Of a stretch of 64,000 nucleotides of DNA, positions 2,488-58,910 are shown in pieces. A program made the translations under genes and the position numbers. The notes below the pieces were generated by a model. It was not told the origin of the DNA and did no database searches. It worked only from the letters and a program-made list of their open reading frames with translations. This DNA comes from a virus (lineage: Duplodnaviria > Heunggongvirae > Uroviricota > Caudoviricetes): IMG/VR virus record IMGVR_UViG_3300033067_001661, positions 1 through 64,000 of that record; one strand, written 5' to 3'. Numbering within the stretch: the first letter of the stretch is position 1; every line of letters begins with the position of its first letter.

Positions 2488-2766
2488 TCATATAGATGGT
2501 AACAAATCAACATCTATCAAAAATCTATCACATACTACTTTAACGTATTCCTCATTAGTTTTATACTGAAAACTTTCCCACAAGGAAAATCTAGGACCAT
2601 TACGCGATTTATTCAGCCTTCCAATACAAACATAAATGTTTCGTATAGATCTATCTAGATCATAAATACAATGACGATCTTCTTGATTTTTCAAAACACT
2701 TAACAGCCTCTTGCATCGGCTCTGTAAGGCGTCTATTTTTTCTTTTACTTTGATATCAATGTCCAT
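2488..2766 (-). CDS. hypothetical protein
   Basis: 92-aa ORF inside the Ala cassette. Confidence 0.55.
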   Translation of the reverse strand: MDIDIKVKEKIDALQSRCKRLLSVLKNQEDRHCIYDLDRSIRNIYVCIGRLNKSRNGPRFSLWESFQYKTNEEYVKVVCDRFLIDVDLLPSI

Positions 2767-3394: not shown

Positions 3395-3464
3395 ACAACC
3401 AATATGTTAGGTGACCAACGGGGGTAACTTAACAGGTTAACCGTAGGTACATTCGACTGGTTGT
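3395..3464 (-). ncRNA. Y-RNA-like module, copy 1
   Basis: ACAACCAG-TCGAATG...GGTTAAC...CATA-TTGGTTGT. Confidence 0.6.
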
Positions 3465-4948: not shown

Positions 4949-4950
4949 AT

Positions 4951-5065
4951 TTAGCTAGTATGGGATTGAACTGGGAAATGCCTACACAGGCTATCCCCCC
5001 ATAGTTTTGAAGAGGAGGATATAAGAGTTGAACTTATTGATAACCCAGAAACTTCGACTAGCTAA
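4951..5065 (-). ncRNA. Y-RNA-like module, copy 2 (enlarged distal domain)
   Basis: TTAGCTAG-TCGAAG...GGGTTATC...CATA-CTAGCTAA. Confidence 0.55.
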
Positions 5066-5092
5066 ACCTAGTTATCGGCTTTTCAACCAACA

Positions 5093-13839: not shown

Positions 13840-13843
13840 AAAT

Positions 13844-13912
13844 GAACTGATATGTAGTTGATACAAGGGTGGAAACATTACAAGTGTTAACCTTATATCT
13901 ATCGACCAGTTC
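13844..13912 (-). ncRNA. Y-RNA-like module, copy 3
   Basis: GAACTGG-TCGATAG...AAGGTTAAC...CATA-TCAGTTC. Confidence 0.65.
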
Positions 13913-13916
13913 TAAG

Positions 13917-16373: not shown

Positions 16374-17063
16374 TCATCTCTTCTTCATGAAGTTATGAAC
16401 GCATCTATCTGTTCCGATTGCAACTTCGATATTCTTGATTTTAGAATCGAAGTCTTTTCTGCGCGAAATCGAGCAAATCTCCATTTCTTGCTCAGGTTCA
16501 ACGAAGATTACGTCTGTCGTTTCGTCTGAATAAGAAGGCAGTCTATCGCTCTTTTCGGTCTTGCAGTTGACAAGAAGTTCTGCAAGGGCTTTTCTTACGT
16601 CCTCAACAAGACGAGGATAGTAGTCATTAGAAGTATTCGCAGCAAACAGGATCTGAAACTCAAGTTGATAAAACTCTTTGAGTCTCATGAACTTTGTTGG
16701 CTGGTCTTGTTCTCTTCGGAAGCTCTTTCCATGTTGCCAGACGCAGATTGGCGGTTTGAACTTCGGGTCATGATACCCGCTCAAGATATGGCGAGCATAC
16801 GCATATGACCCCATTGTTGTTTCTGGTCTCAAGGCAAGCTGATCAACCATGTAGAAATCATCAACTGAATAGTTGAGATTAATTTCGCTAGACGGCGTAA
16901 GAATCGGCGCTTCGCATTGAACAAGCTTGAAAGCTTGATTCATAGAAAGCAAAGAGCGACGAACAGCAGAAACCATATGTTCAACGAACATATTTCGGAT
17001 TCTGATTTCCTCTTCAGACCAAAAGACCAACCCGTTGACGTTATACAAATTCGCATGAGACAT
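16374..17063 (-). CDS. minimal class II aaRS catalytic core, alpha2 GlyRS-like, no anticodon-binding domain
   Basis: LRPET, motif 2 GKSFRRE..MRLKEFYQLEFQ, motif 3 IEVAIGTDR eight residues before the stop. Confidence 0.85.
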   Translation of the reverse strand: MSHANLYNVNGLVFWSEEEIRIRNMFVEHMVSAVRRSLLSMNQAFKLVQCEAPILTPSSEINLNYSVDDFYMVDQLALRPETTMGSYAYARHILSGYHDPKFKPPICVWQHGKSFRREQDQPTKFMRLKEFYQLEFQILFAANTSNDYYPRLVEDVRKALAELLVNCKTEKSDRLPSYSDETTDVIFVEPEQEMEICSISRRKDFDSKIKNIEVAIGTDRCVHNFMKKR

Positions 17064-19388: not shown

Positions 19389-19529
19389 AGCTGCGCTCGG
19401 GACTCGAACCCGAAACCTCGACCTCAAAATGGTGTTAACCTTCATCCTATCGACCAGTCAGTTATTAGACTGACTGATATGTTGCCGGCGAAGATGTTTT
19501 TTCGCGCTCTACCATTGAGCTAACGCAGC
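19389..19529 (-). ncRNA. tRNA shell with the Y-RNA-like module replacing the anticodon arm
   Basis: GCTGCGT/GCGCAGC, canonical D and T arms; CATA-TCAGTCAG..CTGACTGG-TCGATAG..AAGGTTAAC. Confidence 0.75.
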
Positions 19530-19534
19530 ATTTT

Positions 19535-19599
19535 GAACTGATATGTTGATGAACGTAAGGGGTTAATTTGCAGTTAACCTTATGTTCTTCGACCAGTTC
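19535..19599 (-). ncRNA. Y-RNA-like module, copy 4
   Basis: GAACTGG-TCGAAG..AAGGTTAAC..CATA-TCAGTTC. Confidence 0.65.
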
Positions 19600-19604
19600 T
19601 AAAG

Positions 19605-19678
19605 TCAGGGAGACAAGATTTGAACTTGCGACCTTCTGGACCCAAACCAGACGCTCTACCAAGCTGAGCTACACCCTG
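19605..19678 (-). tRNA. tRNA-Pro(TGG)
   Basis: TCTGG-TT TGG GT-CCAGA. Confidence 0.92.
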
Positions 19679-19681
19679 AAT

Positions 19682-19751
19682 GAATCAGTATGTTGGAGAA
19701 TAAGGTGTTGTTACAATTTCAAGTTGTTAACCTTACTCATTCGACTGATTC
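19682..19751 (-). ncRNA. Y-RNA-like module, copy 5
   Basis: GAATCAG-TCGAATG..AAGGTTAAC..CATA-CTGATTC. Confidence 0.65.
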
Positions 19752-19759
19752 TAAATCGT

Positions 19760-20173
19760 TCAACAAGTTTTATCCTGCTGAACAAGGTCTTTTTGATTTC
19801 CAATCGTGATGTGGAATGTATGTTTGTAGTCTTTAGGAGGCTCAATGTAAGGGCTGATTATAGGCAACCCAAGTTCCACCCGAATCTCTTCGAGTCGCTT
19901 ACTAAAAGCATCGACCCAAAAGTAAAGCGTACCGTTACGAACCACGTGGGTGTATTCAAATTCTATTTCTTCACCCGCATGTTTGTTCCAGAACTCCATG
20001 TTAGGATTTTCTTTGCGAACAACAGATATATGAGCGTCATACATCTGAGTATTCGTTCTAATTGATTTCGGTAGTAGACTGCGATAGTACCTAACAATCT
20101 CTTGGTCTACATCAAGAACGAGATTTTCTCGTCCATACCGAAGTATGCCAGTTGATTTGAAAAGGGTACTCAT
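19760..20173 (-). CDS. 2H phosphoesterase
   Basis: Two Hx(S/T) motifs: HISV and HITI. Confidence 0.8.
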   Translation of the reverse strand: MSTLFKSTGILRYGRENLVLDVDQEIVRYYRSLLPKSIRTNTQMYDAHISVVRKENPNMEFWNKHAGEEIEFEYTHVVRNGTLYFWVDAFSKRLEEIRVELGLPIISPYIEPPKDYKHTFHITIGNQKDLVQQDKTC

Positions 20174-20176
20174 AAA

Positions 20177-20301
20177 TACGGCGAGTAGGACTCGAACCTA
20201 CAACCCGGGGTTTGGGTTAACCTTGTTCCATTCGGCCTGAAAAGGCATGTATTAGGAGAAGGTGTTTTAGACTCCTGCTCTGCCAATTGAGCTATCGCCG
20301 T
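20177..20301 (-). ncRNA. second tRNA shell with the Y-RNA-like module replacing the anticodon arm
   Basis: ACGGCGA/TCGCCGT, canonical D and T arms; CATG-CCT TTTC AGG-CCGAATG..AAGGTTAAC. Confidence 0.75.
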
Positions 20302-21123: not shown

Positions 21124-21126
21124 AAG

Positions 21127-21209
21127 TAACCAGTATGGGGTTGAGAAGACGTTTTAACCGCAATGCGGTTGCTTTACAAGAGCGTTAATCTTACTCATTC
21201 GACTGGTTA
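21127..21209 (-). ncRNA. Y-RNA-like module, copy 6
   Basis: TAACCAG-TCGAATG..AAGATTAAC..CATA-CTGGTTA. Confidence 0.65.
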
Positions 21210-21214
21210 TAAAG

Positions 21215-21383: not shown

Positions 21384-21498
21384 AGCAGCAAGCCGGACTC
21401 GAACCGGCAACTTTCTAAATTCCGCCTCTAAGGTTAAGAGGAATCGACACCTCACAGGAATCCCTCTCGGGGACACTCTGCCATTGAGTTATTGCTGC
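21384..21498 (-). ncRNA. tRNA shell with three hairpins in place of the anticodon arm
   Basis: GCAGCAA/TTGCTGC; D arm ACTC/GAGT; T arm GCCGG TTCGAGT CCGGC. Confidence 0.7.
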
Positions 21499-22799: not shown

Positions 22800-22922
22800 T
22801 TACTGTCCTCCCAAAGCTAGAGCCAGAGGCCCGATCATATCGGGACGGCTATTAAAGCCGCAACCGGCAGCAAATCCTGCTGTCGGCTTCTGGGTATAGG
22901 TTTGGGACGATGATTGCAACAT
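22800..22922 (-). promoter_or_regulatory. putative 40-aa leader peptide carrying the antiterminator strand
   Basis: AAGGA RBS, MLQSSSQ...ALGGQ*; GGGCCTCTGG (22823-22832) is complementary to CCAGAGGCCC (22752-22761). Confidence 0.55.
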
Positions 22923-23123
22923 GGAACTGTTATCCTTCTGTTCGGAGACGGCGATACGCGCCGCTCTGTCCATTACTATACCTTGTATATCGGCTAAAGT
23001 CCTTCCTCGATTGCAGATTTTCTCAAAAATTCTGCTCGAATGCTCATTCTCGCTTGAAAAACAAGGATTTTTGCGCCAAGAATTTTGGTGTTTGTCTTTC
23101 ACTTCGACCGAATCGTGTCTTGT

Positions 23124-23540
23124 TCACTCGGTATGAACAACGTTTTCGTCAACATGAGCCGCATTGACCTTCTCTTTCCAGCTTTCCTTGACGTTCGACT
23201 TCTGGAAAACAGTTTCCAGAATCTCAGTCTTTTGGTCAATGAAGCTAGAGTAGTTTACAGTGTCATACGGATTGAAGACCGGAGCAGGCTTGTCGTAGAC
23301 AATCTTCGCTCCAGGGCAGGTCTCATGACCAGCGGCCTTCCAGTCCCAATGCTGGGAAAGACCAACAACTCGGTCGCCAACGTAAATCGCCTCATTGATT
23401 TCATGCGTCACAATAATGCATGTAAAAGGAGGCTCTTCGCCGCGCTTCTTGGCTTCTTCGTTCTCCGCTACTTCGTTCGATATCGGCCAACCGCTATTGG
23501 CCTTCACCGAAGTATAGGGAGGGCGATTCCACTTTTTCAA
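23124..23540 (-). CDS. C-terminal fragment of a NitT/TauT-type ABC ATPase
   Basis: IIVTHEINEAIYVGDRVVGLS H-loop; no Walker A/B. Confidence 0.6.
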   Translation of the reverse strand: MKKWNRPPYTSVKANSGWPISNEVAENEEAKKRGEEPPFTCIIVTHEINEAIYVGDRVVGLSQHWDWKAAGHETCPGAKIVYDKPAPVFNPYDTVNYSSFIDQKTEILETVFQKSNVKESWKEKVNAAHVDENVVHTE

Positions 23541-56222: not shown

Positions 56223-58910
56223 TCAGACCTTTACATACTTACCAGGAAGCTCTACGCCAACTTCAACTCGCTGCTTTTTACCATTTGAGTCTTCCAATAC
56301 AACATATCCGTCAGATTTAGAAACAACTCTAAAAGATTCTTCTTGACTTGCTTCAAAAGCAATGCCTGAAGACTTACTTCTAAATCTGTCTCCAACAGCA
56401 ACCATTGAAGAAGAGCCAGGCTCTCTATAAATCATCGACTTAACGCCTTCCCATTCTGAAGGAGAACCTTCTCCAGGAAGTCTACCGCCAGCGCCAAACT
56501 CAGAAGCAGAACTTGCGTCTGCCTCTTTTACTCTATTATACCAGCCTTGAGCCTTTTTTGGACCATACATATTCTCTATCTCCATTCGCATAGACTCAAC
56601 AAACGCAATTGCTTGCTGTTCGTCCACGATATTACCGCCAAGCTGCTCTTCAAGAAGCTTGTCTTGAATATACTTAATGAAAGAGGGCAATCCCTTTGGC
56701 GGCTTAGGAGTTAGAGTAGGAAACATCTGCTGTAAACGGTTGCCGTCAACAAGCGGTTTCATCTGAATTGGAACAGGCCTATTCAAGTATTCTCTCATTT
56801 GCTCGGCATGTTGACCCTTTAGGTCAAAGTCAGCCTGATCGCCTTCATCAGACTTCGCCATTGTATCTGCTTGAGCATGCATCATAACAAACTCCCAGAG
56901 ATCCTTTCGGTCGCTACCTGGGATTTGCGTATCACGCATAAACTTACCAATGGATTTGTTAGTCCAAGAGTCAGTGTGAGGCCTCATATGTTGACGAACA
57001 ACGACATTGACAAACTTACGGTCGTCTTCGCCAATACCAATTCTCTTCATGATGGCGTCAGCTATGTCAGCAGACTTATCCTCATGACCAACATAGGTAT
57101 ATTCGCCTGGATCATGTTCTTTCGGCTTTCCAATTTCAGGATGAGCCTTACCATAATCATGAAAGACCGCAGCCATAAGCATGTTGATTCGATCTTTCTT
57201 GGAAACATTTCTTTGCTTCATGAGTTTGTCAAGATTTTCGACAACTCTCAAAGTATGCTCAAGAAGGTTGAACTTGTGATGCCTATTCCTTTGGTCCATG
57301 TTAAGGGGAAGTAGGTTCCTTGTCTCTTCAGCGTCAAAAATAGCAGCGTCGAGACCTGTTGCAAACATGGCTCGAATGGCAGCCGCAGGTCTTTCTGCGC
57401 CAAACATCTTAATAATTTCAGGACCAGCCCTCTCAGGAGCCACCTTGCTTCTATAGGCATTATGAACATCAGGGTCTCTCATTGCATTGAGAGTCCCTTC
57501 GTCAATATTTGCATTTGGATAACGACTATAGAAACGGAAAACTCTAAGCATTCGCAAAGGGTCGTCCATAAACGTCTTTTTCGGGTCCAGAGGCGTCCTA
57601 AGAACCATAGATTGAAGATCTTTGAGACCTCCAACATAATCCTCGACCTGACCAGTATTAACGTTATAGAACATGGCGTTGATTGTTAAATCTCGCCTCA
57701 AAGCGTCAACCTTTGGATCGTCAGAAAGAGTCATTGTTGGAATACGAGAATCGCCATAGCTCTCGTCTCGAAGGTTGACAAAATCAATCTTCAAACCACC
57801 AATGTCAAGAGCGGTTGTTTCAAGATGCTTTGACTTCTCAACATTCTGCTTTACAACATATGCAGAGTCAACCTTAATGGGAGAACCTGGAACCATCTTT
57901 GTATATTCAATGGCCTTATTGACAAACTGTTGTCCAGTCATTTTGTCAAGAGCGATATCAATATCGTCGCTTGGAGTTCCAAGAAGTTTATCTCGAACCC
58001 AGCCGCCTGCAACTCTGAAAGTAATACCCAAAGACATCTTTGTATTGATATCCATGAGGGTTGCAAAGATTGTTTGCTCTTGAGGAGTTAGATTGATTTG
58101 AGGCATTGCTGCTGCTTCTTTTCTACGTCCAATATGACGAACTATGCTGTCAAAAAATCCAGAGTTAGCCCAATATTCTGCTGTATATCTCTCTGGCCTT
58201 CTCTTATATACTTTACTATCAGGATGCCTGTCCCATCTTATTGATAATACATCTTGCAAAGCCTGCGTTGGGCTAATAGACCTACACTTCTCTTTATGAA
58301 TACCAAGAGAGGGTATATCAACCTCAAATAAGTGCATTGTTCTTGCGAACTTATACTTATCTATACCAGGTATGAAAGAAGTCGTATAAACAGGACAGCC
58401 AATATTAGTCTCTTTAGAAATTGCTTCAACTACTCGAACATTTTCATACCCGCCTCCCTCAACAACAATGCAGTTGATCGCATCTGTTATATCGAGTTCA
58501 TTGGAGTCAAAAATCGCAAGACCACCATAAGTCTTGACTTCGCAGCCATTCTTTTCTGCAATTTTGTTCGGGTCTAACGACAAGAACAATCTGCATTTCT
58601 GTTCTTTGAAAATTCTATCAGAGGCGGCATTGGAGAACAATAGAATACTAGAAGGAGCGGTAACTCTCTTTGTCTCTAGTATCCTGCGAAGCTGAACAAT
58701 GTCGCATGGATAAACCGACTTGCCATAAAACTCCTTATTCTCGAAAACGACCTGCAATAAATGCCTTGGAGAAACCTGCAAAATTCTCTCTGTATCTCTA
58801 GCGGAAAGAAGAGCGCGAATTATATCCTTAGCAAGATCTTCAGTCAACTTCTGACCGCAATTCTGCTGATAAACCGTAATCGTGTCTTTGATGATCGTTT
58901 CGAAATCCAT
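56223..58910 (-). CDS. tRNA nucleotidyltransferase (class II CCA-adding/PolyA polymerase family, HD domain) with N- and C-terminal extensions
   Basis: VAGGWVRD..DIDIA, RRDLTINA, DDPLRMLR, EHT...FHDYGK. Confidence 0.92.
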   Translation of the reverse strand: MDFETIIKDTITVYQQNCGQKLTEDLAKDIIRALLSARDTERILQVSPRHLLQVVFENKEFYGKSVYPCDIVQLRRILETKRVTAPSSILLFSNAASDRIFKEQKCRLFLSLDPNKIAEKNGCEVKTYGGLAIFDSNELDITDAINCIVVEGGGYENVRVVEAISKETNIGCPVYTTSFIPGIDKYKFARTMHLFEVDIPSLGIHKEKCRSISPTQALQDVLSIRWDRHPDSKVYKRRPERYTAEYWANSGFFDSIVRHIGRRKEAAAMPQINLTPQEQTIFATLMDINTKMSLGITFRVAGGWVRDKLLGTPSDDIDIALDKMTGQQFVNKAIEYTKMVPGSPIKVDSAYVVKQNVEKSKHLETTALDIGGLKIDFVNLRDESYGDSRIPTMTLSDDPKVDALRRDLTINAMFYNVNTGQVEDYVGGLKDLQSMVLRTPLDPKKTFMDDPLRMLRVFRFYSRYPNANIDEGTLNAMRDPDVHNAYRSKVAPERAGPEIIKMFGAERPAAAIRAMFATGLDAAIFDAEETRNLLPLNMDQRNRHHKFNLLEHTLRVVENLDKLMKQRNVSKKDRINMLMAAVFHDYGKAHPEIGKPKEHDPGEYTYVGHEDKSADIADAIMKRIGIGEDDRKFVNVVVRQHMRPHTDSWTNKSIGKFMRDTQIPGSDRKDLWEFVMMHAQADTMAKSDEGDQADFDLKGQHAEQMREYLNRPVPIQMKPLVDGNRLQQMFPTLTPKPPKGLPSFIKYIQDKLLEEQLGGNIVDEQQAIAFVESMRMEIENMYGPKKAQGWYNRVKEADASSASEFGAGGRLPGEGSPSEWEGVKSMIYREPGSSSMVAVGDRFRSKSSGIAFEASQEESFRVVSKSDGYVVLEDSNGKKQRVEVGVELPGKYVKV

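Follow-up and report, generated by a model that had tools for sequence, protein, structure and literature searches.

Candidate Y RNAs with native tRNA ends in a phage tRNA array: an apparent gene-level circular permutation of YrlA

The closest described relatives of the RNAs considered here are the bacterial YrlA RNAs, in which the stem bound by the Ro60/Rsr protein carries the motif GNCGAAN0-1G and is protected from nuclease by Rsr (Chen et al. 2014, PMC4201824). The YrlA of M. smegmatis is cut by RNase P at a 7-bp acceptor stem and gains CCA in vivo (PMC4201824), and an origin of YrlA from a dimeric tRNA has been proposed, with tandem tRNA-like units whose flanks pair into the Ro60 site (Wang et al. 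2018, 10.1101/312249). The published YrlA census dropped matches overlapping tandem tRNA genes as false positives (Chen et al., PMC4201824), and discarding such overlaps would have hidden the tRNA-ended form from it. Here we describe two RNAs of apparently this form, chimera A and chimera B, encoded in a 64,000-nucleotide (nt) stretch of DNA, hereafter the window, which comprises the first 64 kb of the 333.6-kb IMG/VR virus record IMGVR_UViG_3300033067_001661 (Caudoviricetes); the record is 66% complete and its start falls inside a tRNA array. What is new is a YrlA variant with native tRNA ends, YrlA itself, its GNCGAAN0-1G motif and its linkage to Ro60 being known already, and the literature that we searched holds no description of Y RNAs with such ends.

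The minus-strand tRNA array fills the first 22 kb of the window and contains 42 tRNAs recognized by ARAGORN, one of them a CUA suppressor. Read 5' to 3' on this strand, chimera B is followed by a 137-codon open reading frame, a free copy of the module that the chimeras carry, tRNA-Pro(UGG), a second free module, chimera A and a gene for a GNAT acetyltransferase (Table 1). Chimera A consists of a 7-bp acceptor stem (GCUGCGU/GCGCAGC, then UA), a D arm (GCUC-AAUGGUA-GAGC), a linker ending in AAAAC, the 5' strand of a helix P2, CAUAU, a P1 hairpin, GGUCGAUAG, the 3' strand of P2, AAGGUUAAC, a small V hairpin, a T arm (UCGGG-UUCGAGU-CCCGA) and a discriminator U. Its V hairpin, of 3 bp with a 7-nt loop, 3' of UUAAC, is the V arm of YrlA. 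Chimera B lacks this hairpin and has the acceptor stem ACGGCGA/UCGCCGU with a discriminator A; the Rfam tRNA model spans it end to end, with a 54-nt insert in the anticodon loop. CCA is encoded neither by A or B nor by any of the tRNAs of the array. Between the D and T arms both RNAs follow one plan: an A-rich linker with AAAAC at its end, then a short strand that reads AUCUU in A and ACCUU in B, then 6-8 bases left unpaired, the last of them CAUA(U) in A and CAUG in B, a hairpin that is closed by a loop of its own, GGUCGAUAG (A) or GCCGAAUGG (B), and a return strand that ends in AAGG and is followed by UUAAC, such that a G(U/C)CGA(U/A)NG strand precedes AAGGUUAAC. The G of CAUG in B pairs with the C of GCCGAA and covaries with an A-U pair in type A.

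The initial annotation had listed two chimeras and, between them, two free modules, tRNA-Pro and a 2H phosphoesterase gene, all of which lie on the minus strand where it had placed them. It had further read both RNAs as having normal acceptor, D and T arms, with the anticodon arm exchanged for a permuted module; indeed, the 7-bp acceptor and both arms are present, and CAUR, a loop-closed hairpin, GNCGA(A/U)NG and AAGGUUAAC occur in both, with family-model scores and covariation in excess of chance. As decoding tRNAs the two are incomplete: they possess the acceptor, discriminator, D and T arms, but once the module is set aside they have no 5-bp anticodon stem, 7-nt loop, U33 or conserved anticodon. 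An "upper anticodon stem", in which nucleotides 3' of the D arm would pair with nucleotides 5' of the T arm, was considered and dropped, as no consistent pairing could be established. Chimera A is missed by both the Rfam tRNA model and ARAGORN, and chimera B is not called by ARAGORN.

Aligned to the genuine YrlA copies of the phage locus L154, the Rfam YrlA consensus (RF02553) reads CGAAUG, lower stem, CUA, an optional V hairpin, T arm, loop-closed acceptor stem, D arm, the returning strand of the lower stem, AAAACUUG and the closing strand. A chimera cut in its P1 loop, with its acceptor ends joined, therefore has exactly the order of YrlA. Several further observations bear on this relationship: 1) the GNCGAAN0-1G motif is present as GGUCGAUAG in A (with one departure, U for A), as GCCGAAUGG in B and as GUCGAAUG or GUCGAAG in the free modules. 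2) Standard YrlA genes in the phage loci L223, L224 and L154 have in common with the module the words P1, GNCG, P2 and UUAUC, and further on AAAAC, P2', CAYUUAY and P1'; those of L223 and L224, both of them phage Ro60 loci, align with the whole length of the Rfam model at 42 bits, and their acceptor hairpin is closed. 3) In a head-to-tail pair of chimeras in the related megaphage G006 the YrlA model aligns across the junction, taking the T arm and acceptor 3' strand from the first unit and continuing with the 5' acceptor strand and D arm of the second. 4) The D and T arms have the elbow nucleotides of a tRNA, with stems that are 100% paired and show compensatory changes, and with invariant G18G19 and UUCRA. 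5) Where a YrlA would end in the Ro60 helix and have its acceptor-like stem closed by a loop, the acceptor strands of each member pair with one another (66 of 66) and it is P1 that is closed. Hence, by sequence and predicted structure, A and B appear to be a gene-level circular permutation of YrlA, i.e. Y RNAs with native tRNA ends. The initial annotation had likewise proposed YrlA-type Y RNAs with a loop-closed Ro-binding helix and an open acceptor end, a proposal borne out by the motif, by collinearity with YrlA after rotation and by the copies that relatives carry beside Ro60.

The chimeras thus resemble YrlA (RF02553; PMC4201824; structure in 10.1101/312249) in pairing a GNCGAAN0-1G strand with an A-rich/CUUR strand, in a helix that runs into the position of the anticodon stem, in near-canonical D and T arms with elbow nucleotides, in the optional V hairpin and, at the level of the family, in a same-strand Ro60 neighbour. 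They differ in that YrlA ends in the Ro60 helix and closes its acceptor with a loop, whereas a chimera has the loop on its Ro60 helix and leaves the acceptor, which bears a discriminator base, open. Because ends and closures are swapped, the Rfam YrlA model cannot score them, and only generic tRNA matches with an insert of about 50 nt are obtained. The YrlA of M. smegmatis comes close in being a Ro60-bound Y RNA whose 5' end is processed, whose acceptor stem has the 7 bp of a tRNA and which finishes in CCA; however, its open end is made by cutting a closed hairpin, yielding a two-piece RNA in which the Ro60 helix is also open, while the chimeras are encoded in one piece with the acceptor already open. 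The two free modules nearest the chimeras, as hairpins containing the Ro60 helix but no tRNA body, stand beside a tRNA-like Y RNA much as YrlB and other short Y RNAs stand beside YrlA in Salmonella and M. smegmatis, the likeness considered being one of layout; several free-module apical hairpins resemble the stem-loop of an anticodon arm. One RNA body in two circular orders in different genomes is also known from the circularly permuted tRNA genes that red algae and some archaea possess (cited in 10.1101/312249), but there the permuted genes give precursors that are processed back to decoding tRNAs, whereas both orders of the Y RNA appear to be Ro60-binding end products. Finally, in tmRNA, too, a non-decoding insert takes the place of the anticodon arm on a tRNA-like body of acceptor and T arm, and the RNA is processed and CCA-tailed as a tRNA; unlike the chimeras, which have neither G3-U70 nor a reading frame, it is charged with alanine via G3-U70 and carries an mRNA module.

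To characterize the family we used a covariance model, R1, built from seven chimeras of three lineages (the window, L158, G001 and G006), and counted as members only matches of at least 50 bits and more than 100 nt. Under R1 ordinary tRNAs reach at most about 49 bits, as against the scores of A and B in Table 1. Matches of 26-34 bits in L223 and L224 correspond to the flanks of standard YrlA genes and were excluded. Homologues of A in L158 and in G001, a relative of 72% identity, show compensatory T-stem changes and a much shorter P1, and the L158 homologue of B shows a compensatory acceptor change. In 10 distinct phage sequences 99.2% of the cells are paired and 18 of 27 pairs show compensatory changes; in 66 distinct members the figures are 97.6% and 24 of 27, with the acceptor, D and T helices 100% paired, while none of 500 shuffles of the 66 sequences reaches any of these measures and slid controls give 37-48%. 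The alignments are fitted to the model, which flatters such figures, but the raw MAFFT alignment already has the same compensations. The last base of CAUR pairs with the N of GNCGA, as A-U in type A, as G-C in type B and as G-C in an unrelated G006 copy (pair 58-83, AU in 7 and GC in 3 of the 10 phage sequences), and the elbow nucleotides U8, A14, G18G19, G53, U54U55C56, A58 and C61 are invariant. In three-unit tandems the acceptor strands of each unit pair with one another and never with those of a neighbour, and so the units are not misread YrlA genes. The initial annotation had held that its proposal would fall if the loci were not conserved; the 66 distinct members are spread over phages and several bacterial phyla.

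Some copies of the tRNA shell stand at the margin of this family. A 115-nt shell at 21384-21498 (-), at 43.7 bits with R1, is related to the chimeras either as a degenerate copy or as a different form: GUCGAUU and UUAAC both occur in its insert, but pairing of the CAUR/P1 kind is absent. At the position of B, G001 has instead a 74-nt tRNA-like gene (L017:3924-3997; Rfam tRNA 31 bits) with an odd D region, containing GGUCGAUG. Other tRNA shells with large inserts, of 106-156 nt and 25-40 bits, occur in G001 (143670-143825, 161499-161624, 165924-166048 and 178742-178864) and in G006 (332621-332739 and 276009-276114).

The linkage of the family to Ro60 is seen in its relatives. In the related megaphages G001, G004 and G006 the distance between R1 members and same-strand TROVE genes is 70 nt to 1 kb, and members are found in all eight of the retrieved phage Ro60 loci that have no standard YrlA, including L218, L220, L221/L225 (three in tandem) and L222 (two). 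The phage Ro proteins have TROVE and vWA_Ro60 domains at 105-196 bits (G001, 104.9 and 178.1; G006, 133.5 and 195.9). Among bacterial Ro60 loci 38 of 80 have at least one R1 member on the same strand, and these come from the Myxococcota, Chloroflexota, Armatimonadota, Gemmatimonadota, Alphaproteobacteria and others; in each of the 17 bacterial matches inspected the two ends of the RNA form all 7 of the 7 acceptor pairs, and Rfam reads the bacterial members only as tRNAs with large inserts, assigning them to no other family. A same-strand copy within about 4 kb of Ro60, as is typical of YrlA, is found in G001, G004, G006, L218, L220, L221, L222 and the 38 bacterial loci; for A and B, on their incomplete record, it is not. 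Many of the bacterial Ro60 genes are themselves surrounded by closely packed tRNA genes, with tRNA-ended Y RNAs in between, in a megaphage-like layout (L227, L282, L229, L244, L303 and L280), the Polyangiaceae locus L227 having more than 20 tRNA matches in 6.6 kb.

A second association with Ro60 comes from its mRNA. In 5 of 6 phage lineages the Ro60 leader contains CAUA(C), a hairpin of lineage-specific sequence and GUCGA(A/U), abutting the Shine-Dalgarno sequence (Table 1); L222 has no clear copy. The same motif, recurring with different P1 sequences, ties CAUA/GUCGA to Ro60 independently of the Y RNAs and is a likely autoregulatory operator. In the window a comparable element at 23104-23135 (-), with CAUA, a 7-bp hairpin and GUCGAAG, lies at the GTG start of the reading frame 22800-23102 (-), upstream of the head of the tRNA array. 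It may mark an mRNA regulated by Ro60 or may be a chance occurrence, there being one weaker match on the other strand.

Table 1. Features of the window and Ro60 leader motifs of related phages
Feature	Coordinates	Strand	Basis
Chimera A, candidate 141-nt tRNA-ended Y RNA	19389..19529	-	R1 139.5 bits, covariation, homologues in L158 and G001
Putative Ro60-binding element of A (CAUAU, 7-8 bp loop-closed P1, GGUCGAUAG)	19447..19481	-	descriptor scan (10 pairs); GNCGAAN0-1G motif per PMC4201824
Chimera B, candidate 125-nt tRNA-ended Y RNA	20177..20301	-	Rfam tRNA 49.1 bits, R1 112.5 bits
Putative Ro60-binding element of B (CAUG, GCCU-UUUC-AGGC, CGAAUGG)	20229..20249	-	descriptor scan; covariation
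Free Y-like module (P1, GUCGAAUG, P2, AAGGUUAAC, apical hairpin, CCUU, AACAUAC, P1')	19681..19752	-	folding z -3.8; descriptor scan
Free Y-like module	19534..19600	-	folding z -3.6; descriptor scan
Free Y-like module, between tRNA-Asp and tRNA-Lys	13843..13913	-	descriptor scan
Free Y-like module, variant ACGGUUAAC	3395..3464	-	descriptor scan
Free Y-like module, long interior	4950..5066	-	descriptor scan
Free Y-like module, variant AAGAUUAAC	21126..21210	-	descriptor scan
tRNA-Pro(UGG)	19604..19678	-	tRNA searches (ARAGORN, Rfam)
Predicted 137-aa 2H phosphoesterase	19760..20173	-	two HxS/T motifs, sub-threshold Pfam match, model fold comparison
895-aa CCA-adding-enzyme-type protein (PolyA_pol head, RNA-binding, HD domains)	56223..58910	-	domain searches
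Ro60 leader motif	L191:1640-1690 (G001), L218:2448-2500, L220:~2445-2500, L221:~2455-2490, L214:~2500-2545(-)		just before start codon

Given the observed anatomy and covariation, the homology with YrlA by rotation and the linkage to Ro60 in relatives, we consider it quite probable that A and B represent YrlA-type Y RNAs of the phage in native tRNA order, whose closed helix would dock Ro60, which would be processed like tRNAs and which would serve in RNA surveillance or repair; the processing, the binding and the downstream function are here predicted parts of the picture. Several observations weigh against it. Minimum-free-energy folds of single sequences favour small local hairpins over P2, and P2 in A can be drawn in two registers, CAUCUU/AGGAUG or AUCUU/AAGGU. 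The gathering score of RF02553, 69 bits, is not reached, the best match on A being 14.7 bits, as is to be expected of a rotated order. Exact AAGGTTAAC is no commoner genome-wide than its reversed control, and with one mismatch it occurs 27 times in the window against 17±4, which is not above chance; a pattern GTCGA-N6-14-AAGGTTAAC run on IMG/VR was too loose, with at least 117 matches, mostly chance, and was not used. As word counts are at chance level, the case is built on structure and homology. Moreover, A and B sit within the tRNA array and not beside Ro60, and searches of their own 333-kb record with TROVE and with the G001 Ro60 protein found no Ro60. The UvdE-like neighbour of Ro60 was also not found in this 66%-complete record. 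In G001 the distance from the A homologue to Ro60 is about 96 kb, in a direction that here runs off the end of the contig; since, in addition, the record is incomplete and begins inside the array, the Ro60 of this phage most likely lies in the missing third of its genome.

That no Ro60 was found in the 333-kb record would suit a role without Ro60, in which A and B act as tRNA mimics, i.e. as sponges or decoys for host tRNA-targeting defence nucleases or tRNA-binding proteins, or as regulators sensed by their shape, with the helix bound by some other protein. Their place in the array, some 100 kb from the Ro60 site of relatives, fits such a role, as do the anticodon-like appearance, of the form YU-NNN-RN, of the free-module apical loops and of many V hairpins. 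However, A and B offer no anticodon loop to an anticodon nuclease, their helix has the very motif that is footprinted by Rsr in YrlA and that recurs in the Ro60 mRNA leader, and every related genome that is at least 73% complete and has array copies encodes Ro60 with its own adjacent copy, making this role unlikely. The module is also repeated at least 8 times in the array, as might be expected if dead tRNA genes had been hit by a repeated selfish element of about 70 nt and had no function. Yet in the chimeras the module does not stand as a plain insertion, its parts being in rotated order; AAAAC-N-CCUU and AAGG-UUAAC are kept as junction words, each of the five helices covaries in 66 sequences from phages and several bacterial phyla, and the position and strand beside Ro60 genes are fixed; with purifying selection so evident, functionless relics are highly improbable.

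Likewise very hard to sustain is the notion of intron-containing tRNA genes from which removal of the module would give ordinary decoding tRNAs. The end-to-end Rfam alignment of B, in which the module is an anticodon-loop insert, and the proximity of a 2H phosphoesterase, an enzyme of the RNA-end-healing type, are what such genes might show. However, B without its module gives the stem GGAGU/ACCCC, with an A-C mismatch, and the loop CUAAAAC (anticodon AAA), and A gives an 8-nt loop without U33. Nor does the V hairpin of A supply a conserved anticodon, as its 7-nt loop reads UUU, UUG and GUU in three close relatives; in the family about 28 of 66 V hairpins are anticodon-loop-like, with scattered triplets, and some members have no hairpin. 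Furthermore, the insert is conserved and covarying and bears the Ro60 motif; searches of the 333-kb record turned up neither RtcB nor an Rnl2-type ligase, and no group I intron signal was found.

If A and B are indeed Y RNAs with tRNA ends, their working can be pictured as follows. Transcribed along with the minus-strand tRNA array, they would be freed by RNase P and 3' processing, and would receive CCA from a host enzyme or from a CCA-type enzyme of the phage. The acceptor, D and T arms would form a tRNA-like L, with the anticodon arm extended into P2, a conserved internal loop (CAUR opposite GNCGAA) and the loop-closed P1, together making up the Ro60 docking site. The closed helix would bind the phage Ro60, whose gene is off the incomplete record and present in relatives, while the tRNA-shaped end might show the particle to a tRNA-recognising partner or protect the RNA, as proposed for YrlA. 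The likely task of the particle would be surveillance or repair of structured RNA and tRNA during infection. A scan of the locus for promoters and terminators gave nothing above shuffles, the sole suggestive site being TTGACT-16-TATGTT about 30 nt upstream of B.

Release by RNase P and addition of CCA are plausible outcomes for A and B because of the M. smegmatis precedent and the CCA-enzyme-like protein of the phage, which could, judging by its domains, tail both the array tRNAs and the tRNA-ended Y RNAs. This 895-aa protein has unexplained extensions of about 300 aa at the N-terminus and about 250 aa at the C-terminus, and adjoins a 1404-aa open reading frame without a Pfam match. Since neither the acceptor sequence nor the discriminator base is constant among the members, they have no set of synthetase identity elements in common, and the idea of one particular synthetase identity for the whole family was abandoned. 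The further proposals of the initial annotation, that the RNAs could be charged and could act as anticodon-less adaptors or nuclease decoys, gained no support from the analysis. G1-C72, C2-G71 and U73 of the phage tRNA-Gly do recur in type A and in the Ro60-adjacent copies. Inside the tRNA array, 2.3 kb from the chimera locus, the frame 16374-17063 (-) encodes a 229-aa class II synthetase core that has no anticodon-binding domain and is closest to the alpha2 glycyl-tRNA synthetase (GlyRS), at 51 bits in NCBIfam against a cut-off of 312 and at E 5e-6 to a GlyRS in the PDB. One could imagine that the open acceptor is put to use, the CCA-tailed Y RNAs being aminoacylated, in type A and the Ro60-adjacent copies perhaps by this GlyRS-like core, and Ro60 thereby being coupled to EF-Tu, the ribosome or the charging state; we regard this as unlikely.

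A natural Y RNA that keeps true tRNA ends would provide a direct experimental handle on the role of the tRNA-like half and on the descent of Y RNAs from tRNAs, and the tandem chimera units fit the dimeric-tRNA ancestor pictured by Wang et al. With the tRNA-ended form common beside Ro60 in giant phages, Myxococcota, Chloroflexota, Armatimonadota and Gemmatimonadota, its cutting by RNase P, CCA-tailing, modification, charging and EF-Tu binding become questions that can be asked. Such genes are now annotated as tRNAs with odd inserts or missed, and as the YrlA census dropped tandem-tRNA overlaps, the distribution of Y RNAs has probably been under-counted.

The window contains six free modules, typically of about 70 nt and in the order P1, GNCGA(A/U)NG, P2 ending in AAGG, UUAAC, apical hairpin, CCUU, (A)ACAUAY and P1', with P1 helices that covary among them. 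As the same words occur in permuted order, the chimeras are rotated copies of the module, opened apically and closed basally, in agreement with the initial annotation. No Rfam family matches the free modules or the chimera modules at E<=10. In the modules starting at 19681, 19534, 13843, 3395 and 21126 the apical loop has 7 nt in the anticodon-loop-like form CU-NNN-AA, with UGA, GCA, UGU, GUU and UGU, respectively, as the triplet; the G001 free module that adjoins Ro60 has no such loop.

The initial annotation had also called the gene between the chimeras a 2H phosphoesterase, and its motifs and predicted fold agree. The H-x-S/T motifs AHIS (residues 47-50) and HIT (121-123) are invariant in 8 homologues down to 29% identity, and Pfam 2H-SAK matches at 23.8 bits, under its cut-off of 27. 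For the predicted model (pLDDT 70) the top 21 rows of a VIA-align comparison all belong to the 2H superfamily, at a modest Z of 5.9-3.7 followed by a gap to 2.9, and include drCPDase, LigT, Acb1, CNPase and Usb1; Foldseek with the same model gave nothing significant, and a PDB sequence search gave no match. The product is thus, on its modelled fold, a 2H enzyme, which may heal RNA ends or, Acb1 being among the matches, may degrade a cyclic-nucleotide signal. Its linkage to the chimeras is kept in close relatives only.

A further tRNA-like RNA, of about 80 nt, is shared by some 20 diverse phage contigs (L153, L155, L156, L159, L162, L163, L165, L170, L172-L174 and L176-L183). A D arm is missing from it; a 7-bp acceptor whose strands covary is combined with a lengthened anticodon-like arm, the loop of which is invariably CUACGAA, and with AAAGGUUAAC and a T arm; CCA is usually encoded, Rfam gives no match at E<=0.1, and its AGG-UUAAC junction is common to the Y module.

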